A stretch of 64,000 nt of DNA. It comes from a plasmid. This document shows positions 1,377-38,996 of this stretch, piece after piece. Within the stretch, counting starts at the first letter, position 1. Every line of letters begins with the position of its first letter. The notes under the pieces are model-generated. The model worked only from the letters and a program-made list of their open reading frames with translations. It was not told the DNA's origin and searched no databases. The stretch lies in sequence record NZ_CP031419.1; one strand, 5' to 3'. Position numbers and translations under genes: made by a program.

Positions 1377-1528
1377 GGGTCCTCCCAGCTCAAGGAACGG
1401 GTCCGTCCGTCTGGAACCCTCACAACGCCAGCTGACCATGCTGGCGCAGTCCGGGCCCAGGATCTCACACACCCTGGCCACTCGGCGCAGATCGCATTGC
1501 CTCGCACCCGGAAGAGATCATTGTGCGT

Positions 1529-1543
1529 TAATGTATCTAAAGA
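1529..1543 (-). promoter_or_regulatory. TTTAGATACATTA motif copy 1 (upstream of 708..1376)
   Basis: plus strand taATGTATCTAAAga; same orientation relative to the downstream gene as all other copies. Confidence 0.5.
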
Positions 1544-1627
1544 GTCTATAGACACCAACGAGGAAGGAGGCCGCTATCGAAGTGGACGCTGTGGCACACC
1601 CACGACCGTGGCCAGCAGCGATTCATC

Positions 1628-1951
1628 TTGGTTAACCGAAATCAGCGTGTCGCGTGCTCCGGCGCGACTCTCCATGCAAGGATGTCGCACATGGCTGGAG
1701 TAAAGCGCCTGTCTTACTCACGAAAGACGTACGGCTTCAAGCTGCATCAGAACGTCGACAAACTGATCGACGAGTTGGCCGCCGCCGAAACTGGAGGCGA
1801 CCGGAGCAGGTTGCTGACGTTGCTGGTGTGCGAGAGGCGCGGCGTCCCGGTCGACGAGATCCTCGTTCCCGATGAGAACGGCCAGGAGTCACTACTCGAC
1901 GGCACCACGAAAAAGGAGGTCACAAGGAAGCACCGACAATCGGTCGCATAG
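1628..1951 (+). CDS. hypothetical protein
   Basis: 107-aa ORF (TTG start; alternative internal ATG at 1681); no domain recognised. Confidence 0.35.
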   Translation: MVNRNQRVACSGATLHARMSHMAGVKRLSYSRKTYGFKLHQNVDKLIDELAAAETGGDRSRLLTLLVCERRGVPVDEILVPDENGQESLLDGTTKKEVTRKHRQSVA

Positions 1952-2148
1952 TCCGGGGCTAGCTCACGCCAGCACGCCCTGAAGACCAGCGGAGACCAAA
2001 GACCACAAACTGAACAATCGACCGGGTTAACCACATGGACGGAAGCCCTCAGCCACGCCTAGCCGAGAGCTCCCGGTTCGTCCATGGGGGATGAGCATTC
2101 GCCTTCTCATCTCCACGGTGTACCCCCTCAGCAACGAAAGGCCATCCC

Positions 2149-4026
2149 TTGCTGAAGGAACCCAGGGTCGAGGATACCGCACGCCCGAAATCCGGTTCAA
2201 CCGAAACCGCAGAGTGTGTCGAAAACTCACCCTCCTCAAACCGAAGCGGCAGCCCACCAGGGCCACCATCACAGCTCAGATTGCGCGAGTTGGACCATGT
2301 CCTCTACTCCGGTCCCTACGTTCTCATCGACGCCGACAACCATTCGCCGCGCCGGACCCGGTCTCTCGACAGGGCGTACGCCGCGATCGACGCCGGCGAG
2401 GTTGCTACGGCTGGTGGGACTCTCCGGCCTGGCAACGTCGGCGCAGACATCGACCCCCTCCCAGAGCACGCTGTGCTCGGTGACGCGGTCGCCGAGGTAC
2501 TCGTCGGGTGGCTCCACGATCAGGGCATCTTCTACCTGGCGCGTGAGTCCGGTCGGCCCGGAGGTCGGCACGTTGTAGGCGTCGGCGCATCGCCGGACCA
2601 GATGGAGGAATGGAACCGCCTGTGCGCCGATACCGCGCAAGCGTTCGGCGTTCCGGTCGACGACCGCTCTGGCGGCGTGCTGAGACTGCTCGCCGCCCCG
2701 CACCGCAAGGGATACTCCGCACCTGTTCTCGGCGGAACGCTGACGCTGAACGCCCCCACCGTGAGGACGCGAGCCAGCCGGGTCCGCGGTGCGCGGCCGG
2801 CGCGTCGACGGCCTTCGCCTAGCTCTCGCCCGGCGCCCGCTGGTCCCGACACCTCCCGCTCTGCGCGGGAGTACGGGCAAGTCTGCGCCATGATCCGCCG
2901 TGGATGCACCCCTGCCGAGGCGTGGCGGGCCCAGAACCGCCCCGGATCGAAAGCTTCCGAGCGTGGAGAGCACCGGTGGCGGCGCTTCGTCTGGCTCGAT
3001 GCCCACACCACCGTGTGCGCCGAGGAAGGGCTTACGCCGGAGCAAGCATGGCAGCGGGTCAGCGCAGCAAGTCCGGCCGTGTGCCGCAAGATCGGACGGC
3101 GAGCATGGCAGCGCCTCTGGGAGCGTGCGGTCGAGCAGGCGGCCATTCAGCGGCCGCGCCGGCGGCGCCTGCCGTCCGACACTGTGAATAGGTCGACGGG
3201 AGCGGACAACGCGCGGATCGCCGCTGTCGCAGCGGGCCTCAAAACAGCACTCGATGCGACAGATCTGGGCGTGCGCCCCCAACGACGGAGGAACTGCGAG
3301 ATTCTGCTGCTGAACCTCGCGCCGGTCTTCGTCAGGCGGGAGGGTTCAATCTCGGTGCGGGATATCGCTCTTCGTGCGGGCATCGACGTGAAAACGGTCC
3401 GGGTGTGCCGCGACCTACTCATCGCCCACGGACTTCTCGCGACGACGCACCACTACGCAGGCGGCGCGTCGGACAGCCACGCTTACGCGATGGGACCAGC
3501 GGCCCGTCCTTACGTCGACGACGCAGTTTCGAAAATTTCCCCCACTTGTCCGAAGGACACCCCCCTCCCCCCAACGCCCTCCGGCCGCGCCGACCGCTCC
3601 CTCCTCCGCTCCCGCTTCCGCCGTGAACGCCACCACTGGCGCATCCGCTGCGCAGCCCTAGCCGACCTACCCCCTGGTGAATCCCTGGCCAGCAGCTCGT
3701 CACCCGCGGTGAAGGCGTACCGCTCGCTGCGCTACCAGCAGCGCTGGTGGCGCAGCCTGTCGTGCGACGACCAGGAGGCGCGTCGGGCTGCCAGGCGCGC
3801 GACACTCGAGGCGCTGACCCCCAGCGCCCGCTCGGCCTGGTTCAACTGGCTGGACCGGCGGAACAGCCTGGTGGCCGTGGTTGATCGGGCTGCCGCCGGA
3901 ACCTTCACTTCGACCGACCGATCTGTCCTGGCTGCTGCGCCTCGAACTGTGCACACGGGGCTGCAAGACCCCAGCTGGCAGCCCTGCCGCCCTCGGAGCA
4001 GACAGCTCGTCTTGGCGGCGGCTTAG
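2149..4026 (+). CDS. plasmid-type replication protein, Prim-Pol (primase-polymerase)-like N-terminal domain with C-terminal wHTH
   Basis: hhhDhD motif 'YVLIDADNH' and sGxH-like 'GGRHVVGV' as in Prim-Pol/RepB' proteins; C-terminal 'ISVRDIALRAGIDVKTVRVCRDLL' HTH; lies immediately upstream of the iteron array; TTG start with GAAAGG RBS. Confidence 0.5.
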   Translation: MLKEPRVEDTARPKSGSTETAECVENSPSSNRSGSPPGPPSQLRLRELDHVLYSGPYVLIDADNHSPRRTRSLDRAYAAIDAGEVATAGGTLRPGNVGADIDPLPEHAVLGDAVAEVLVGWLHDQGIFYLARESGRPGGRHVVGVGASPDQMEEWNRLCADTAQAFGVPVDDRSGGVLRLLAAPHRKGYSAPVLGGTLTLNAPTVRTRASRVRGARPARRRPSPSSRPAPAGPDTSRSAREYGQVCAMIRRGCTPAEAWRAQNRPGSKASERGEHRWRRFVWLDAHTTVCAEEGLTPEQAWQRVSAASPAVCRKIGRRAWQRLWERAVEQAAIQRPRRRRLPSDTVNRSTGADNARIAAVAAGLKTALDATDLGVRPQRRRNCEILLLNLAPVFVRREGSISVRDIALRAGIDVKTVRVCRDLLIAHGLLATTHHYAGGASDSHAYAMGPAARPYVDDAVSKISPTCPKDTPLPPTPSGRADRSLLRSRFRRERHHWRIRCAALADLPPGESLASSSSPAVKAYRSLRYQQRWWRSLSCDDQEARRAARRATLEALTPSARSAWFNWLDRRNSLVAVVDRAAAGTFTSTDRSVLAAAPRTVHTGLQDPSWQPCRPRSRQLVLAAA

Positions 4027-4348
4027 GCTAGACGGGGGTACTGAGCGCGCGGCGGATCGTAACCGGCAGGTGGAGGTCCGATAGCTTTGGAAGAGCCGTG
4101 AGCCCCGGCACTATTGGGGCTCTGCGGGCTTGTGGCGGACACGGACGCGGCGAGGGTAACGACTGAACTCTGACACGGTCCAGCGGGTTGAGCAGTGCCG
4201 GTGTCGGGCTCCGTCGGCTGGGCCGTACGGCATACACACCGCGTGAGCAGGGAGGCCAGGCGACCGGACTGGGCCCAGCAGTGCGAGCCGCCTCGCGCCT
4301 CGAACCTGATGTGGCGGGTCGAACGGTTCGAGCTGCGTGCTCAAGAGC

Positions 4349-4539
4349 GAAACTTCCCACACAACTTCGGAGTTGGGCCGGTTAAGGAGTGTTCGGTGCC
4401 AGCGGAAACTTCCCACACCGCGAATATCGGGTAAACCACGGTTTACCCGAGCCCGGGTTGAATCCGGCGCTGACGTCAGCAGGTCGAAGAACTTCACTAC
4501 GTGCGTGAGGTCGCAGGCCAGAGTGGAAACTTCCCACAC
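4349..4539. repeat. iteron array: GAAACTTCCCACAC x3 (4349-4362, 4405-4418, 4526-4539) plus variant GAAGAACTTCAC; nested TCGAAC palindromes at 4300-4340
   Basis: exact 14-bp direct repeats in a non-coding stretch between rep and parA; 2 more copies at 7007-7020 and 7086-7100. Confidence 0.7.
4429..4448. promoter_or_regulatory. parS-like palindrome GGGTAAACCaCGGTTTACCC
   Basis: one-mismatch copy of the 16-bp palindrome GTAAACCGCGGTTTAC found 3 more times downstream of parB. Confidence 0.55.
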
Positions 4540-4713
4540 TGACCACAATCTCAAAACGTCCGTTTTGGAAGCGTGGCAGGGCCGCGTGAACGGCAAGGAT
4601 TCCGCCGAGCCCTTCCGGGTCGACCGGCGACCGAGGGCCTCAGCGCGTCGTCACAGTGACGAAATGGTTTGGGGGAAGGCAGTGGTTGGTAAACGCAGTC
4701 TCTCGGCCCAACT

Positions 4714-4980
4714 TCAGGTTTGGTTCGAGGGGACCTCGGGCATGCGTCCGTGTTCGTCGGGTCGCGGCACGCCGGCCGAATCGAGCCAGGCGTTGACGGC
4801 ATCGTCTACGGTCTTAGAGATGACGTAGCCGCGCTTCTTGATCCAGTCGAGACGAGCGATCGTCGAAGCATGGAGTTGCGTCCCAAACTGCTTCTTGCCG
4901 ACGCCTTTTCGAACCGGCAGCTCCACGGCCGCGGCTACTGAGGAATCTCCGCTGGTAGGTGTACTGCGCGAAGCATTCAC
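4714..4980 (-). CDS. small basic protein, possible RHH/ParG-like DNA-binding protein divergent from parA
   Basis: 88 aa from GTG with GGAGGAG RBS 5 nt upstream; KKQFGTQLHASTIARLDWIKKRGY segment; position typical of a partition-operon regulator. Confidence 0.45.
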   Translation of the reverse strand: MNASRSTPTSGDSSVAAAVELPVRKGVGKKQFGTQLHASTIARLDWIKKRGYVISKTVDDAVNAWLDSAGVPRPDEHGRMPEVPSNQT

Positions 4981-5168
4981 GGTAACTCCTCCAATGAAGA
5001 TGGACATCCGGTTCTTCAGTGCGGTTTCGGCGAATCGCCGCCGTAGCCGTTGACACTAGAAAACTATCTTATATCCTCTCTTACAGTCGCAGTTACCACC
5101 GCGGCGATTCTCAAACCCAAATCCGAAGTAGCCCACACGATGTGGGCGAAGTACACGGAGGTAGAACC

Positions 5169-5882
5169 ATGGCATACGTCGAGGTTGTTCTGAATCAGAA
5201 GGGTGGCGTCGGCAAGTCCACGCTCACCGTCAACCTGGCGGCCACCACCGCGGATGCGCTGTCGAGCTCGGAGCCGGGCACCATCTCTCCCGTTGCGGCG
5301 GTCAGCATCGACCCCCAGGGGTCGGCAGTCTGGTGGGCAGACCGAGTTGCGGATCTGCCGTTTCATATCGTCCAGGCGCACAATGACATTGAAGGACTGC
5401 GCGCTCTCCGGAACAGCAGCAGCATCGACCACTTCTACGTCGACACCCCAGGCTGGATCGGCCACGACGAAGATGACGAAGCAGCTGCCGACCCTCTCGG
5501 CAAGGGGCCCGCGGCCGAGGCGCTGCGCGCTGTGCTCGAATCCGCTGACCACGTGATCGTGCCGATCGAGCCCGAGCCGCTCGCGTTCGATCCGACGGCT
5601 CGGACAATCGAGAAGGTCATCAAGCCGCGTGGGTTGGATTTCCTTGTCGTAGTCAACAACTGGGACCCACGAGACGGTATGGCGGACTTGGAGCAGACCA
5701 AGGACTACGTCAAGGCCAACGGGTGGCCTCTCGCGAATACCGTGATCCGCCACTACAAGGTTCACGCACGTGCCGCAGCCGAAGGCACCGTGGTGACGGA
5801 GTACCCGCGCAACCGAGTTAGCTTGGAAGCGCGTGCCGATTTCAGCAAGCTCGCTCTTGAGCTCAAGGCCGGGGCTCGCTGA
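5169..5882 (+). CDS. parA: ParA partition ATPase
   Basis: deviant Walker A 'NQKGGVGKST'; GGAGG RBS; ATGA overlap with parB. Confidence 0.9.
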   Translation: MAYVEVVLNQKGGVGKSTLTVNLAATTADALSSSEPGTISPVAAVSIDPQGSAVWWADRVADLPFHIVQAHNDIEGLRALRNSSSIDHFYVDTPGWIGHDEDDEAAADPLGKGPAAEALRAVLESADHVIVPIEPEPLAFDPTARTIEKVIKPRGLDFLVVVNNWDPRDGMADLEQTKDYVKANGWPLANTVIRHYKVHARAAAEGTVVTEYPRNRVSLEARADFSKLALELKAGAR

Positions 5883-6799
5883 TGGCCGGCCGGGGCGGTC
5901 GTGCGAACCTCGCCGACCTGGTTGGTTCCACTGGGAAGAACTCCACGGTCGACGGTGTGAACGCACGAGCCAGTTCGCCTGCAAAAGGGTCGACACCCGA
6001 GGTGGTGGTCAATGGGGCGCCACTGGAGATCAAGCTGGAAGATCTCGTGGCGAATCCGTTGAACCCGCGCGAGATCATGGATGTGGACGATCTCGCTTCT
6101 ATCATCGAGATTCAGCTGCAACCGGCATTGATCATCGGCCGAGAGGCGTACCTGAAGCTCTGGCCCGAGCTGGAGTCGGAGCTGGGTGATGCCAAGTATG
6201 TCGTCATCAACGGTTGCCGACGTCTGGAGGCTGCCCGAAAGTTCGGCCGGACGACCCTTGAGTGCGTTCGCAAAGACGAAGTCGCTGACTCGAGAGCGAG
6301 TCTGCGAGCGGCGTCCATCCGAGAGAACGTCGAACGGGAGAACCTCGACGTAATCGAAGAGGCGAAGGCCGTCGAGGCGTTGGTTTCGGACTGCGAGGGC
6401 AACGGAGCGCGGGCCGGGCAGATCCTCGGCAAGACGAAAATGTGGGTGTCTCAACGCCGGGCGCTTCTAAAGCTCACACCGGAGCTTCAGGCGAAGCTTC
6501 GGGCGGGCGAGCTTGCTATCCGAGAAGCCCGAGAACTCGGCCGAGTTCCCGCTGAGGAACAGGTCGCCCGCTGGAAGGCTCAGCTGGAGAAGAAGGAGAG
6601 GGAGCAAGAGGGCGAGACGTCGGAGTCGAATACGTCGAGGCGCGATGTCGACACCGTGAAGATCGTCAAGACGCTCAAGAAGTGGGACGCGGACACTGCG
6701 GTTCTCGCCTCCGCGCTCTTCGTGCATCTCGATCGAGGTGGTGTGCACGAGTTGATCGAGCAGCTAAATCAGATGGCTACGTCGAAGGAAGGCGAGTAG
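5882..6799 (+). CDS. parB: ParB partition protein (ParB/Srx N-terminal domain)
   Basis: 'LANPLNPRE' and 'INGCRRLEAA' ParB boxes; coupled to parA. Confidence 0.85.
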   Translation: MAGRGGRANLADLVGSTGKNSTVDGVNARASSPAKGSTPEVVVNGAPLEIKLEDLVANPLNPREIMDVDDLASIIEIQLQPALIIGREAYLKLWPELESELGDAKYVVINGCRRLEAARKFGRTTLECVRKDEVADSRASLRAASIRENVERENLDVIEEAKAVEALVSDCEGNGARAGQILGKTKMWVSQRRALLKLTPELQAKLRAGELAIREARELGRVPAEEQVARWKAQLEKKEREQEGETSESNTSRRDVDTVKIVKTLKKWDADTAVLASALFVHLDRGGVHELIEQLNQMATSKEGE

Positions 6800-6906
6800 T
6801 TCCTCGTCCTCTGTGTGGGAAGTTTCGGGGCCGGTAGACCAATGGTCTACCGGCCCCGACTCAATTCACGTGATCAATTCGTCTAGTCGCGCGATGCGCT
6901 CCATGC

Positions 6907-7134
6907 GGTAAACCGCGGTTTACCCGGAGTGTCCGTGACTGCTGCCGGTGGCCCGCCGTCTCTGGACCTTCCGTCGGGTCCGACGCATGGAATGCGAGCT
7001 GTTGGCGAAACTTCCCACACAACCTCTTCGGCGAGTAAACCGCGGTTTACCGTATGGCCCCACACCCGGCCATCGGCCACAGGGCGAGAACTTCCCACAC
7101 AAACTTCAATGGGGGTAAACCGCGGTTTACCCCC
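6907..7134. repeat. centromere/res-like cluster: palindrome GTAAACCGCGGTTTAC x3 (6907-6924, 7035-7050, 7111-7134) interleaved with iterons GAAACTTCCCACAC (7007-7020, 7086-7100)
   Basis: perfect 16-bp palindromes, each ~10-18 bp after an iteron; sits between the parB stop and the recombinase gene end. Confidence 0.7.
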
Positions 7135-8077
7135 ACATCGCCAGCACTCGGTCGGCTTCCGCTTCTGCCGCATCGAGCAGGGCTTCGACGTCAGCCATGG
7201 ATTCCACTGCGCGCCGCCGGGCTGCGAGACCATGGTCAAAGTGGTCGTTACCGAGGGGTGGGCACTGGCTCTCGAAGGTGGGGTCATGGACGAGGTCGAC
7301 GCCGTCGTCTCGACGGCGTTTCCGTGGGCGATGGGTTGGCACTCTGCCGAGAATGTGCGCGGCGGTGATTACCCCGATCGAGCCGGGGGTGAGTGGCGAG
7401 GGATCGAGAGCCGGGCTACCGTCCCGGTCGAGGGCAAAGAGCAGCGGGCCTGTGGTGTGGGCCGCAGCGGATATGCGCTCAGGGAGCGTCTCGCGCTCGA
7501 GGTGCTGCTCCAGGAGATAGGTCGCGGTCGGCCGGTGCACGACAGCGAGGACTGCCGCCCAACGTCGGAAAGCGGCGACGGGGCAGATCGCGCGGTCGTC
7601 AGCGGCACGAAGGACTACGAGGGGCCCGGCGCCGATCTCGATGCGGTCCGAGCGGATCGCGACCTCGGATCGGTCAAGTCCTGCGATGAGCGGAAAGGAG
7701 AGGCCGGAGCGGGCTAGGTGGAGCAAGACCGCGTCGCGGCGGCCGAATAGCCCCGCAGGCCAGCCCCAGGTAGGAAGGTTCGGCAGGGCCGCTTCGATTA
7801 GTCCGTGAAGCCGCTCGGTCCTGGCGGCGCGGGCAGGATTCATCAAGTTGCGGACGTATGGTGATCGGCCGGGTGCGGGAAATCCAGCATTGCGGTGCGC
7901 CCAGTTGATGGCACTGAGGCGGCCTCGTTGGGTTGACGGTGCCGCCGGCGCGGACGCCAGGTACTCGCCGACCGCGCTCGGGTCGGCGGGCATCGGCGTA
8001 TGGCCATGCACGGCGCACCAGTCAGCGAAGCGGGAGTAGTCATAGCGGTAGCGCGCGGTGAGGGCATCGCTCACCAT
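7127..8077 (-). CDS. tyrosine-recombinase-like protein (SAM-like N-domain; catalytic motifs not clearly conserved)
   Basis: N-terminus 'YDYSRFADWCAVHGHTPMPADPSAVGEYL' resembles integrase core-binding domain; overlaps the upstream integrase stop by 7 nt. Confidence 0.55.
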   Translation of the reverse strand: MVSDALTARYRYDYSRFADWCAVHGHTPMPADPSAVGEYLASAPAAPSTQRGRLSAINWAHRNAGFPAPGRSPYVRNLMNPARAARTERLHGLIEAALPNLPTWGWPAGLFGRRDAVLLHLARSGLSFPLIAGLDRSEVAIRSDRIEIGAGPLVVLRAADDRAICPVAAFRRWAAVLAVVHRPTATYLLEQHLERETLPERISAAAHTTGPLLFALDRDGSPALDPSPLTPGSIGVITAAHILGRVPTHRPRKRRRDDGVDLVHDPTFESQCPPLGNDHFDHGLAARRRAVESMADVEALLDAAEAEADRVLAMWG

Positions 8078-9321
8078 GGCAGCCGGGTGGCGGCGTTGCC
8101 GACCAGAGGAGCGTGTTCACGGGCATACACCCGGAGCATGGAGACTGACTTGTGTCGGGTTTGGCGCTGGATCTCGTAGTCGCTGGCGCCGAGTCGGTAG
8201 CCCTGCGTAACGAAGCCGCTGCGAAGGGAATGGCCCGCGAATAAGGCTGCGGTCTCTTTGTCGTACCCGACTGCCATTAATCGGCGGCGCAGCATATCGC
8301 CGACGGCTTCGGCCGTCAGCGCGGTAGATGCGATGTTCCCGTGGCGGTCGACCGCACGGAAGGCGGGGTTTCGCGAATTGGTGAGTTCGGGCCAGCGGCC
8401 GCGGCATACGTGCCGCTCGCAGTAGTCGTCGGTCTTGTTCAGCAGCTCCTGCACAGCAATGCGACCGCCGGCGTCGCGCGCTGCCACGAGGTCGAGCCAG
8501 CGCCGCCACGCGCACGGCGGGCATGTTGCGGGCTCGCTGCCCCGTGGGAGTGCGACCACCACTTCCTCTTCCTGCGATCCCTTCGAGATTCGCAGCCGGA
8601 CGTGGAGGCCGTCGAGCCTGTGCGGAGTGATGTCCTCAAGCCAGCGCTCGGTCATCTCCGAGGCACGGAACGCGCCAGTGAACCCCATCAGCAGCAGTGC
8701 GGCGTCGCGGTGGGCGGCGATGCGCTGAGCGTCGTTCACCGCCTGGCGGCGGGCCTGGGTGACGAGCTCGCGCACGTCGTCGACGAGTACCGGTTCGGCG
8801 CGTTTGGGGCGGCGCTCGCCCTTCTCTCGGCAGGCCCTCCGGATGCCGGTCAGTACCTCGGCGACGATCCGTGCCGAGCCCGGATGCGGGTAGCCGGCCG
8901 CCCGGTGGCGGTCCCCGATCGCGGCAACCCATCGGGTGAGGGTCGGCGGAGCGTAGCGGCGTCGTCCTTTGCTATCGCGCAGTACGGCGGCTTCGCTGAT
9001 GTAGAGGGCCACGGTGAGTGGATGGGCGGGCAGCGCCTGGTGCCCCTGCGTAGCGTTCACCGCGCACCAGCGCTCGAACCGCCGCCAGTCCGTCGCGTAG
9101 GAGCGAATCGTGTTGCGGGCCTGGGCGGTGGCGGTGGACTCCCCGATGAGCCGGAGATCCTCGCTTGACAGCGACGGCAGCGGCGCCAATGCCAATTCCG
9201 CGTCGGAGTCCACATCGGCAATTCCAAGAGGCGTCAGCACCTCCCGAATGCGGTCGATCTCCGCGTCGGCCAGCGCCGGTGCTGCCGCCTGGCGGTAGAC
9301 CTCGATCTCCTTGCCGGTCAT
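8071..9321 (-). CDS. tyrosine recombinase / integrase (XerC/D-phage integrase family)
   Basis: box I 'LLLMGFTGAFRASEM', box II 'HSLRSGFVTQ', catalytic Tyr region 'LRVYAREH'; start at ATG 9321 (MTGKEIEVY) or 9363. Confidence 0.85.
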   Translation of the reverse strand: MTGKEIEVYRQAAAPALADAEIDRIREVLTPLGIADVDSDAELALAPLPSLSSEDLRLIGESTATAQARNTIRSYATDWRRFERWCAVNATQGHQALPAHPLTVALYISEAAVLRDSKGRRRYAPPTLTRWVAAIGDRHRAAGYPHPGSARIVAEVLTGIRRACREKGERRPKRAEPVLVDDVRELVTQARRQAVNDAQRIAAHRDAALLLMGFTGAFRASEMTERWLEDITPHRLDGLHVRLRISKGSQEEEVVVALPRGSEPATCPPCAWRRWLDLVAARDAGGRIAVQELLNKTDDYCERHVCRGRWPELTNSRNPAFRAVDRHGNIASTALTAEAVGDMLRRRLMAVGYDKETAALFAGHSLRSGFVTQGYRLGASDYEIQRQTRHKSVSMLRVYAREHAPLVGNAATRLPW

Positions 9322-9410
9322 GTGGAGGAGCTTAGCCGTGTGGGCCGACATCCTCACTGGCACAAAACGTTCTGTGTCGGCGGATTGGAAGAGGCCCCGA
9401 AGTGTCGAGG

Positions 9411-10807
9411 TCAGTCGGTCTGCGCCGTCGTGTTATCCAGGCCAGCGGGCAGCGCGCGTTCGAAGAACCCGTCGTAGACCTCAGCCGGGAGCGTGCCCGA
9501 CACGCGAAGGCATTCGCGGAGCGTGCGTGCGATAGTGCCCCGGCTGAGTTGCAACTCGGGCGAGCGGTCGGCTTCGCCGACGACCTCACCGACCAAGCTT
9601 CGTGCGCGCGCCGGGTTGTGCGCGATGAGCCAGTCCAGGTTCCTGGCGACAGGGCCCGCGATCATGATCCAGTCGCTGGAGGGGCGTAGCCGCTCTCCCC
9701 GCCGCAACTGGTCGCGCAGCGCGTAGAACAGGGTGTCGCGCTGGTTGTCCATGCCCGCGATCCGGTCGAGGTCGTTGACCACGAAGAGCGCGAGATCTCG
9801 GGCGACCGCGGTGACTTGCTCCTTGTTGCGCTGTCCGATGACCCACCAACGCCGTCGTTTCGGGACGCCCCAGAAGTAGTGGGTGTACTCCTCCGTGAGC
9901 CGGTCGAACAGCGCGGCGATTCCGCGTGGCATCGGATTGTCGGGGCTGGTGGCGAGTACCTCCCCGATCCCGGCGGCTGACCGCTCACGGGCTTCGACCC
10001 AGTCGGCGGCGACAGGCCGGGACCACAATGCCCTGCCCCCGAGGACCAATTGAGGGTCGGGCAACAGCCCCTCCCCGCGAGCGCGATATCCGCGCACAGT
10101 GCCCGGCGCCAGTCCCGCCATGGCCGCGAGTTGGGTGGCGTTGATGAGCTGGTCCGCGCGGCCAGTTCGGGGGCATGCAGACTGACCACGCAGTCTTCGA
10201 GAGGGCGGCCGTCGCTGGTCCGCAAGTGCTCCCAGAGCGCGAGATCGTCGAGCCAGTGCGGTGATCCCTCGCTGTCGAGTTGGACATCCTCGACTGAAAG
10301 CAGGCGGCCGCGTCCGGGATCGGCTGGGGCGGACGCCAATTGCTGTGCTGCTGTGACAGTTTCGGCGTTGGCGACTTGCCGAAGGGCGTAGCCGCCGGCG
10401 ACGGTGTCGACCACTTGCCGCGGGCGGTACCAAGATGTGCCGTCCCACCAGTAGCCCCCGGACCGGAACAGCAGCGGCGAGGGTCGGCCTGCGTCCCAGG
10501 CGGCCCAGAGTTCATGGAGGCCCGCAGCGTCCTCATCGCGCACCAGCAAGACGGTGCGCCCGTGGTCGGGATGGTAGTGGATCGACCATGCGAACTCGGG
10601 ACGGCGTGGATCGGTGGTGAACGCCCACCAACGCTGGCCGCCGGTGCTGTAATCGAAGCGGCCCCAGGTCTTTTCGTCACGTCCCCGGCCTACCCCCTCG
10701 ATGTCCTCCGGGTCGTCTACGGGTATGTGAAGGTCGTCTACGAACGGCAACGACGGAACTGGATGATCGGTGCTGAGCCCGTTCGCGAGCGGCACAACTC
10801 CCAACAT
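9411..10807 (-). pseudogene. hypothetical protein with apparent frameshift (frames 9662..10807 and 9411..10448 join near 10145-10155); C-terminal HTH-like segment
   Basis: N-terminal 215 aa of frame A and C-terminal ~245 aa of frame B both look protein-like while the remainder of each frame is low-complexity; junction '…LHAPELAAR|DQLINATQLAAMAGLAPGTVRGY'. Confidence 0.4.
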
Positions 10808-11625: not shown

Positions 11626-11647
11626 TTCAAAACGGCCGTTTTGGAAT
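11626..11647. terminator. palindrome TTCAAAACGGCCGTTTTGGAA between convergent genes (possible bidirectional terminator)
   Basis: perfect 8-bp stem CAAAACGG/CCGTTTTG; related palindromes at 4548-4566 and 21008-21025. Confidence 0.35.
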
Positions 11648-20333: not shown

Positions 20334-21038
20334 TCAGAGCGGGAACAGCGACGGTTGGGCGTTGGCATTGCCAGTCCAGGACAAAACGTTGGGGAGGTTC
20401 GCGTCCGGGGCGAAGGTGAGGTAGGTCCCATCGACACTGTCGCAGCCGATCGCAGTCGCGTAGTCATAGCGGCGGCGCGAGTTCACCCGGCCCATATGGA
20501 CCCACTTGCCGAGGCTCGAGGCGACCGCGGCGAGGTTCGCCGCCGCCGGGCCGAGCTTCCAGGCGGTGTCCCCGGCGAGGAACAGACAGTCAATCTCGTC
20601 CCACGGGTCCCAGGTGTCGAACTCCATGAAATTCTGGGCCGCGAAGGCGACGGGAAACCCGAGATCGCGGATGCGCCGCAGCATCGGCAGAGAGCGGGCG
20701 AGCGTGGCGAAGTGGTCGCCGACAACGTCGGGCGCCACCACGAACAGACAGCGGTCGGCGTGCGGGCGCAGCCGGCCGAGCCAGTTCAGGTAGGCGTCGT
20801 CACCGGGATAGGCCCCGCCGAACACCCCGTTGTCGGCACACCACAGCGGGTAGTCAGCGCTCAGGCGGTTGCCTTGAGCGGGAGTCATGATCGCGCCCAG
20901 TTCCTCGGCGCGGATTCGGTCGCGGATCGCGGGTGTGCTGGGTGGGGTGAGGTAGAGCGGAGCGCCAGGAGTGCAGTCGTGCCAGCGCTCGGCCGCCCAG
21001 CTCTCATTAAAACGTTCGTTTTGGTTATCGGCAGGCAT
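20334..21038 (-). CDS. hypothetical protein
   Basis: 234-aa ORF, 'LWCADNGVFGGAYPGDDAYLNWL' core; no family assigned. Confidence 0.55.
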   Translation of the reverse strand: MPADNQNERFNESWAAERWHDCTPGAPLYLTPPSTPAIRDRIRAEELGAIMTPAQGNRLSADYPLWCADNGVFGGAYPGDDAYLNWLGRLRPHADRCLFVVAPDVVGDHFATLARSLPMLRRIRDLGFPVAFAAQNFMEFDTWDPWDEIDCLFLAGDTAWKLGPAAANLAAVASSLGKWVHMGRVNSRRRYDYATAIGCDSVDGTYLTFAPDANLPNVLSWTGNANAQPSLFPL

Positions 21039-38844: not shown

Positions 38845-38996
38845 ACTGTATCTAAAGGTGCGTCCACACCTAATGGTCCGAGTACCCCCGCCGAGCCTTT
38901 CGGATCTATCGCACCATTAGATACATTAGAGGCATACCAAGTTTACCTGCGGCAACCGTCGCAGGTGAAACCGCAAAACGGATGTTTTAGATACAT
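38845..38996. promoter_or_regulatory. three TAGATACA motif copies in the divergent region (38845-38857 minus-oriented; 38916-38928 and 38981-38996 plus-oriented)
   Basis: CTGTATCTAAAGG / TTAGATACATTAG / ATGTTTTAGATACATC. Confidence 0.55.

Follow-up and report, generated by a model that had tools for sequence, protein, structure and literature searches.

Two repeat families around the rep and parAB genes of a pNF1-family Nocardia plasmid: predicted parS palindromes and candidate Rep-binding sites

Plasmid record NZ_CP031419.1 contains a segment in which two families of short repeats, designated motif A and motif B here, surround the partition genes parA and parB and lie next to rep, a gene for a putative replication initiator. 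The stretch analysed (the window) comprises 64,000 nt of this record, and all coordinates are counted from window position 1. At 89% identity, the segment matches four Nocardia plasmids, among them pNF1 of N. farcinica IFM 10152, and we consider it probable, on balance, that it is the core for replication and partition of a Nocardia plasmid of the pNF1 family, in which the motif B palindromes are parS sites and the motif A copies are predicted sites for Rep.

Significance of repeats was assessed by comparison of the number of matches with the number expected and, for motif A, also with 100 shuffles. The comparison set consisted of loci from relative plasmids (labelled L0xx) and of the named plasmids pNF1, pPE-7, CP026745, and CP108015. 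Proteins were analysed with Pfam, NCBIfam, PDB sequence search, an AlphaFold model, and Foldseek, and cumulative GC skew, calculated over the whole plasmid where a complete relative exists, was used as an indicator of the origin. Rfam gave no match in window positions 1500-9500, and a literature search that covered pNF1 and the Nocardia replicon, parS studies, and the palindrome sequence returned nothing relevant.

Gene order and the two repeat clusters

The rep gene (2149-4026, plus strand) encodes a protein of 625 residues from a family that has no Pfam or NCBIfam model; its start codon is uncertain. Downstream, a small ribbon-helix-helix (RHH)-like gene, RHH-2 (4714-5007, minus strand), is divergent from parA (5169-5882, plus strand), which encodes a short Walker-type ATPase of 237 residues without an N-terminal helix-turn-helix (HTH) domain (Pfam CbiA and AAA_31; NCBIfam ParA_partition, 3e-24). 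The parA stop overlaps the start of parB at 5882; parB (5882-6799, plus strand) encodes an HTH-type ParB of 305 residues (PF17762 HTH_ParB, 7e-11), for which PF02195 is a weak match (3.6e-3) and TIGR00180 reaches 57.4 bits, just short of its cut-off (58.45), and the translation contains the arginine box GCRRLEAA. Two recombinase genes follow on the minus strand. The product of int (8071-9363), a tyrosine recombinase of 430 residues (PF00589, 8e-6) in which the R, H-x-x-R, and H...Y motifs can be read from the sequence, is 87-93% identical in L001, L022, L023, and L025 and is the most conserved protein among the relatives, above Rep, ParA, and ParB. Its paralogue rec2 (7127-8077; 316 residues, 27% identical to the int product) has a Cre N-terminal domain match (E = 7e-4), no Pfam match, and catalytic motifs that are unrecognisable by eye; it is intact in all relatives, and the idea that it is a pseudogene in pNF1 was rejected, as the gene is intact there and merely absent from the PLSDB gene table. 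Similarity to the relatives stops just upstream of int, at approximately 9381.

Motif A, GAAACTTCCCACAC, is a 14-bp repeat with five exact copies and one copy with two mismatches in the window (six matches versus 0.21 expected; 0 of 100 shuffles reached six), and motif B, GTAAACCGCGGTTTAC, is a 16-bp palindrome with three exact copies and one with a single mismatch (four versus 0.08 expected). All of these copies fall into two clusters, with no further copy of either motif elsewhere in the 64 kb. The first cluster, between the convergent 3' ends of rep (4026) and RHH-2, comprises three exact plus-strand copies of motif A and one palindrome. Copy 1 (4349-4362) reads AGAACTTCCCACAC in L001 and pNF1; copy 2 (4405-4418), aligned and invariant in seven relatives, lies 12 bp upstream of parS-1 (GTAAACCACGGTTTAC, 4431-4446), which deviates by one mismatch from the consensus and was found by the motif scan and seen in the alignment of relatives; copy 3 (4526-4539) lies inside a partly palindromic 23-bp context (4519-4541), the palindromy of which is more perfect in pNF1 (GTGTGGAAAGTTCCCACAC) and has a 6-bp centre. 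The second cluster, in the interval where the 3' ends of parB and of the recombinase pair converge, begins with copy 4, exact and inverted (6813-6826, minus strand), 14 bp past the parB stop and kept at the same place in six relatives. It continues with the exact palindrome parS-2 (6908-6923), with exact copy 5 (7007-7020, plus strand) 14 bp upstream of parS-3 (7035-7050, exact, from the motif scan), and with copy 6 (7087-7100, plus strand), which reads AGAACTTCCCACAC (two mismatches, 12-bp core exact) and lies 14 bp upstream of parS-4 (7115-7130). The latter is again exact, lies inside a 26-bp perfect palindrome (7110-7135), and overlaps the rec2 stop codon.

The original prediction, of five iterons and four palindromes flanking parAB with each palindrome 10-18 bp behind an iteron, therefore described real repeats that occur only in these two clusters, while overlooking that one exact A copy is inverted and that a sixth, degenerate copy exists. 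The proposed pairing is seen for three palindromes, at 12, 14, and 14 bp, but not for that at 6908, which is 81 bp from the nearest A copy; two pairs do lie beyond parB, the last of them formed with the degenerate copy. The first cluster, which had been assigned simply to the interval between rep and parA, is not directly next to parA: RHH-2, which had been missed, stands between the two.

On the complete 142.5-kb relative CP026745, every A and B copy is found in the same two clusters, and both motifs occupy the same places in four close relatives and in L022-L026 (Rep 53-77% identical), with the 12-bp core of motif A unchanged across this range of Rep identity. Intergenic A copies are confined to the pNF1 subgroup, and a search of 185,579 species genomes for the exact module of A, 8-30 nt, and B gave one match, in Nocardia neocaledoniensis. 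Promoter-like sites are absent from both clusters; since the flanking genes are convergent as well, we take the clusters to be cis-acting maintenance sites rather than operators.

Palindromes, ParB, and other elements of the partition cassette

The distribution of the palindromes among plasmids follows ParB. All four B copies in the window lie at most 0.8 kb from the RHH-2/parA/parB cassette, and all five copies on the 142.5-kb relative are likewise at the cassette. The N. salmonicida plasmid CP108015 and pPE-7, the ParB proteins of which are 53-58% identical, have exactly two copies of ATTAACCGCGGTTAAT, one to either side of parAB. Six plasmids lack a homologue of the window Rep and encode a ParB that is 43-50% identical; in all of them, palindromes built on a ACCGCGGT core adjoin parAB. 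These read TTTACCGCGGTAAA in R. ruber (four copies), R. sp. WAY2, and M. marinum pRAW (two copies each), TTAACCGCGGTTAA in M. avium pMAH135 and M. arabiense, and ATTACCGCGGTAAT in Nocardia NBC_01503 (two copies). A R. rhodochrous plasmid has 13 palindrome copies in the 1.8 kb upstream of parA, which is, by its arrangement, a typical predicted centromere array. Altogether, CCGCGG-centred palindromes with A/T arms adjoin parAB in nine further plasmid lineages of Nocardia, Rhodococcus, and Mycobacterium (ParB 43-58% identical). Rep relatives that are paired with a different ParB, on the other hand, have a different palindrome, ATTCCAATGGAAT, in 6-7 copies. The association between palindrome and ParB holds with a different Rep or none, and with or without recombinases, in every plasmid of the ParB clade examined; because the palindrome follows ParB, and neither Rep nor the recombinases, it is predicted to be parS. 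We regard it as very probable that the motif B palindromes are the parS sites of the plasmid's HTH-type ParB, one of the two roles suggested for them in the original prediction.

The other suggested role was that of recombinase res or crossover sites. Three copies do adjoin the recombinase pair, one of them overlapping the stop codon of rec2. In many plasmids, however, palindromes of this family flank parAB where a tyrosine recombinase is distant or absent; the complete plasmid of N. salmonicida lacks tyrosine recombinases altogether, and neither its palindromes nor those of pPE-7 adjoin a recombinase. In addition, a perfect palindrome lacks the asymmetric 6-8-bp spacer that would provide directionality, and parAB would be excised if the palindrome at 4431 recombined as a direct repeat with those at 6908-7115. 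A role of the palindromes as res sites is thus highly improbable, and we have discarded it.

A ParB homologue is encoded in 463 plasmid records, those of pRAW, pMAH135, and Rhodococcus megaplasmids among them, and WWW-ACCGCGGT-WWW represents a candidate centromere consensus for this large ParB clade on Mycobacteriales plasmids; no description of such a parS family was found in the literature searched. Many parS copies are located inside longer palindromes of 26-40 bp with differing outer arms (e.g., window 7110-7135, L018 4367-4402, and L013 approximately 4396-4435). The potential to form hairpins or cruciforms around parS copies may be under selection, and those longer palindromes that lie just past the parB stop may double as terminators.

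The cassette also contains candidate control elements of its own. The only sigma-70-like site in 3900-7300, TTGACA-16 nt-TATCCT (5050-5077, plus strand), is the parA promoter, and the block around it (5025-5115; TTGACACTAGAAA.CTATCTTATAT.CTCTCTTACAG) is nearly invariant in six relatives. Inverted repeats GAATCGCCGC that bracket this promoter are likely an operator, possibly for RHH-2. A hairpin lies in the parA 5' untranslated region (GCCCACAcgaTGTGGGC, 5131-5147), just before the parA ribosome-binding site. Its stem is preserved in N. salmonicida (GCCCACAAgcaTTTGGGC) and R. rhodochrous (GCCCCAcccTGGGGTG) by compensatory changes, which suggests an RNA or operator structure controlling parA. 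Past parB, a hairpin with perfect 17-bp arms (6825-6859), kept in L001, pNF1, and L023, is likely the parAB terminator.

With regard to RHH-2, homologues occur in 44 plasmid records and share the beta-strand motif F-x-TQLH. The homologue of pMM23 and of small M. avium plasmids is located directly downstream of an AAA/ParA ATPase, a position from which RHH-2 is predicted to be a type Ib-like centromere-binding or regulator protein. Inverted repeats rich in CATG(T/C)A are found upstream of parA wherever an RHH-2 homologue occurs outside the pNF1 group (L019 2964-3005, L020 2843-2896, L006 9780-9835, and pPE-7), and these are probable binding sites of the RHH-2 protein family. The possibility that motif A is an RHH-2 operator was rejected, as the intergenic region between RHH-2 and parA has its own conserved elements and no A copy. 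The cassette with its bounding parS palindromes (4714-6799) is inverted relative to rep in N. salmonicida (L006 8033-10087) and pPE-7 as compared to the pNF1 group.

Two further elements lie between the first cluster and RHH-2. Palindrome C (AAAACGTCCGTTTT, 4553-4566), directly past A copy 3 and kept there in relatives, belongs to a palindrome family (AAAACGNNCGTTTT) with four copies in the window versus 0.04 expected (4553-4566, 11629-11642, 21009-21022, and 38975-38988) and five copies scattered along CP026745; a plasmid-wide regulator may use it as an operator. Element D (CGTCACAGTGACGAAATG, 4649-4666, plus strand) occurs once in the window and is invariant in seven relatives. It also adjoins parA modules in L014 and L027 (M. 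arabiense and R. rhodochrous, with no Rep of the window type) and in L031, which has a distant Rep homologue. Since it accompanies parA modules of plasmids that lack the window Rep family, element D was rejected as a Rep origin site and appears to be a cis element of the par cassette rather than of rep.

Motif A, the Rep protein, and the probable origin region

Beyond a weak match to HTH_29, Rep has no match in Pfam, NCBIfam, or the PDB sequence search. The family alignment contains the invariant motifs D100-x-D102, S134-G-R-P-G-G-R-H141, and P184-H-R, and residues 42-200 are modelled by AlphaFold with a predicted local distance difference test (pLDDT) score of approximately 90. Foldseek returned LigD polymerase and CAPP/Prim-PolC as top matches of the N-terminal domain and MarR-type winged HTH proteins as matches of the central domain. 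Rep is modelled on these grounds as an N-terminal AEP/Prim-Pol-like domain joined to a central winged helix; the earlier designation of Rep as a Prim-Pol protein gains support at the level of the fold only, through the DxD and SGRPGGRH motifs and the LigD-Pol/CAPP matches, and finds no counterpart in sequence searches. Homologues of Rep occur in only 10 plasmid records, all from Nocardia or Amycolatopsis, and the annotation of two complete relatives contains no further rep candidate. The literature search brought up no account of the Rep family or of the pNF1 replicon; together with its cis sites, the family is the probable replication module of Nocardia pNF1-type plasmids, which are carriers of resistance and catabolic genes in clinical isolates.

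Several features at the 5' end of rep deserve mention here. A peptide, (V)EDTARP or QDNARP, is kept near the Rep start in most family members (window 2170-2190; L006 approximately 6005-6020; L009, L008, and L010), and several database annotations place the rep start codon downstream of the true one. In L006 and pPE-7, CACAC-type palindromes close to the start of rep were considered as Rep operators and set aside, as they lie inside the N-terminal coding region and have no equivalent in the window. Upstream of rep, a small gene, RHH-1 (1691-1951, plus strand; 86 residues), has a small gene at the same position in relatives, and the L026 homologue gives a weak PF01402 RHH_1 match; RHH-1 is possibly a CopG-like regulator of rep. 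It was rejected as the binder of motif A, its identity falling to 29-41% in L025 and L026 while the A core is identical.

The evidence that links motif A to Rep comes from within the rep gene. An A-variant, AAAATTTCCCCCAC (3532-3545, plus strand), is located in the rep open reading frame, in a variable linker past the winged helix, and is represented by GAAACTTCCCCCAC in other lineages. Its codons TCC CCC ACT are identical in 9 of the 10 rep genes compared, which belong to five or more deeply separated lineages with protein identities of 36-57%, even though no more than 9-19% of the Thr codons of these genes are ACT. Each locus has a single copy of the 9-mer, at a constant position, and GAAACTTCCCCCAC, found in rep of three lineages, is a variant also seen as intergenic A copies in L001 and pNF1. 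The intragenic variant is present as well in L028, L029, and L011, which have no tyrosine recombinase and of which L029 and L011 carry other par systems. Conservation of this variant at the nucleotide level across the family ties motif A to the Rep family, and Rep is, by a modest balance of this comparative evidence, the predicted binder of motif A.

A number of observations weigh against this assignment and against an origin at the proximal cluster. The conserved rep codons encode a conserved S-P-T peptide, so that the signal is partly one of protein conservation. The A core is constant down to 53% Rep identity and gone from intergenic DNA at 46%, and its presence parallels that of the highly conserved integrase pair, which leaves a recombinase or a par protein as a possible A-binder; distant Rep relatives (37-46% identity) have no convincing intergenic repeat arrays. 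The copies are spaced by 56 and 121 bp in the window and by 91-126 bp in relatives, unlike classical iterons, and their orientation is mixed in L025 and L022. The Foldseek matches of the N-terminal domain are weak (E of approximately 0.01). DnaA boxes (TTGTCCACA, TTATCCACA) are absent from the clusters even when one mismatch is allowed, the most AT-rich stretch is the parA promoter, and no AT-rich unwinding element adjoins the A copies. On the 49-kb N. salmonicida plasmid, the GC skew has a wide trough (21.5-27.5 kb) that fails to single out rep, and the searched literature holds no binding or replication data for these plasmids.

Two other readings of motif A need to be weighed against binding by Rep. 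P1 ParB binds two kinds of site, box A and box B, and motif A could similarly be a second centromere or partition motif, bound by ParB through a second domain or by RHH-2 in a type Ib-like manner, such that A and B together would form a composite centromere unrelated to Rep. This would account for the finding that, across five lineages, an A copy lies within 12-29 bp of approximately 15 of 20 parS copies, for the flanking of the par cassette by both A clusters, and for the 79-97% identity of RHH-2 among A-containing plasmids, and it would fit the role of RHH-2 homologues as ParA partners in pMM23-type plasmids. It does not, however, explain why L006/L028 and pPE-7 have homologues of ParB and RHH-2 and parS-type palindromes but no A, or why RHH-2 homologues with the same F-x-TQLH motif accompany the CATG(T/C)A inverted repeats upstream of parA instead of A. 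The polarity and spacing of A relative to B also vary, three A copies have no parS inside 50 bp, and the intragenic A-variant is kept in plasmids with unrelated par systems; we consider a composite centromere unlikely.

Slightly less likely again is a reading in which the Cre-like pair int and rec2 binds motif A and the clusters form a multimer-resolution site with a core at 4519-4541 and accessory direct repeats, for which the TnpI sites of Tn4430 offer a comparison. The strong conservation of Int matches the unchanged A core, int and rec2 are found in all A-containing plasmids with enough sequence, and the N. salmonicida plasmid lacks both recombinases and intergenic A; the partly palindromic copy 3 with its 6-bp centre and the distal cluster abutting rec2 would also suit a resolution site. 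By contrast, the A-variant is kept inside rep of L028, L029, and L011 in the absence of such recombinases, copy 3 is non-palindromic in L022-L026, and Int homologues at 36-53% identity (L021, L027, L030, and L031) have no intergenic A-like repeats nearby. Moreover, recombination-proficient A copies in both orientations around parAB would delete or invert the par cassette.

As to the origin itself, the global cumulative GC-skew minimum of CP026745 lies at 80-81 kb, which corresponds to the rep 3' end and the proximal cluster, and the minimum in the window lies at approximately 4 kb. A winged-helix initiator of the Rep_3/RepA/Pi/TrfA type, tandem phased repeats in the same orientation, and DnaA boxes with an AT-rich element, all of which characterise classical iteron replicons, are not found here; motif A was also compared with a DnaA box and dropped as such, the best alignment having mismatches at three of nine positions. 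What the segment does share with iteron replicons is a repeat linked to the rep gene family, through the intragenic A-variant. Of the iteron origin beside Rep that had originally been predicted, an origin near the proximal cluster fits the GC-skew minimum, an indirect indicator, whereas the iteron array is given up in view of the dispersed copies, their varying orientation, and the missing DnaA box and AT-rich element. Motif A most likely represents dispersed Rep-binding sites, as predicted from these comparisons, rather than a classical iteron array, and the rep-proximal cluster is the probable location of the replication origin.

Proposed arrangement and comparison with known systems

In the arrangement that we favour, with B as parS and A as Rep sites, ParB dimers would load at motif B, i.e., at one site upstream and three sites downstream of the RHH-2/parA/parB cassette, and ParB on parS would act with the short ParA ATPase to segregate plasmid copies. 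Rep, through its Prim-Pol-like domain and winged helix, would recognise motif A, of which the copy inside the rep open reading frame would be ancestral; the three A copies downstream of rep would mark the probable origin region, and the three distal copies amid parS sites could serve copy control by pairing or a coupling of replication to partition. We infer from sequence these pairings of proteins with sites, the firing of the proximal cluster as an origin, and any functional coupling.

The end of motif A that faces parS differs between lineages. The A+B unit at 7089-7131 is an 81% copy of that at 7009-7051, and the proximity of A and B is owed in part to such duplication of whole units. The changed polarity of A in L022 and L025 would point to selection on proximity rather than on a rigid composite site, and the conserved adjacency hints at a coupling of replication and partition. 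A more specific proposal is that the plasmid physically couples replication control and partition by placing sites of a new Prim-Pol/winged-helix initiator family approximately 1.5-3 helical turns from most parS copies on both sides of the par operon, with the ancestral initiator site inside the rep gene; this is speculative, and we judge it doubtful. In possible modes of coupling, ParB clamps would meet Rep as a roadblock or anchor, or ParB would modulate Rep pairing and initiation. If functional, the adjacency of A and parS would provide a second, plasmid-borne example of cross-talk between replication and partition. The predicted parS and Rep module could also be useful for Nocardia vectors, plasmid typing, and annotation.

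The components of this segment are of known kinds: partition is of the ParABS type, the putative initiator is of the primase type and has its cognate sites, and the recombinase is Cre-like. Among ParABS systems with an HTH ParB, such as those with the chromosomal parS TGTTTCACGTGAAACA or with the 16-bp palindromes of F sopC, the window likewise combines an HTH ParB that has a ParB N-terminal domain with a Walker ParA, and shares with them a perfect palindrome of 14-16 bp that is present in several copies by parAB and tracks the ParB clade in its sequence. It differs in that WWW-ACCGCGGT-WWW is unrelated to the chromosomal parS, in that copies lie on both sides of the operon, and in having a third, small RHH-like gene divergent from parA.

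In P1 (oriR/incA) and F (incB/incC), iterons form two clusters, the second further off, and copy control occurs by handcuffing. The window repeat is similarly found in a rep-proximal and a distant cluster, and a partly palindromic version of the repeat exists. However, the window Rep is not of the WH1-WH2 (Rep_3) type and has a Prim-Pol-like domain with a winged helix instead; the repeats are dispersed at 56-126 bp rather than tandem and phased, with no DnaA boxes nearby; and the second cluster lies beyond parAB, interleaved with parS. Primase-type initiators, represented by ColE2 Rep, RSF1010 RepB', and pRN1 ORF904, resemble the window Rep, as modelled, in that an AEP/primase-like domain is joined to a sequence-specific DNA-binding module and the origin (in the window, the probable origin) lies close to or just downstream of rep, whereas the window Rep shares no sequence similarity with them, lacks a helicase domain, and has multiple dispersed sites as opposed to one origin site.

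An origin or Rep site inside the rep gene is found in the RepA_N family of Firmicutes. The same has been described for repC of repABC replicons (PMC3155836). The Rep-associated element of the window is likewise part of the rep coding sequence, where it falls in a variable linker, and its conservation extends to the nucleotide level; it is a single 14-bp site as opposed to an AT-rich region or iteron array, and belongs to an unrelated protein family. Finally, on chromosome II of V. cholerae, parS2-B and ParB2 have been shown experimentally to act at RctB sites (PMC3141006, PMC3688505). A centromere site within or beside initiator sites (both predicted in the window), which would give ParB a physical route to affect initiation, is common to both systems; the effect has been demonstrated in V. 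cholerae, whereas in the window it is the adjacency of A and parS alone, with varying polarity, that would point to such a route.

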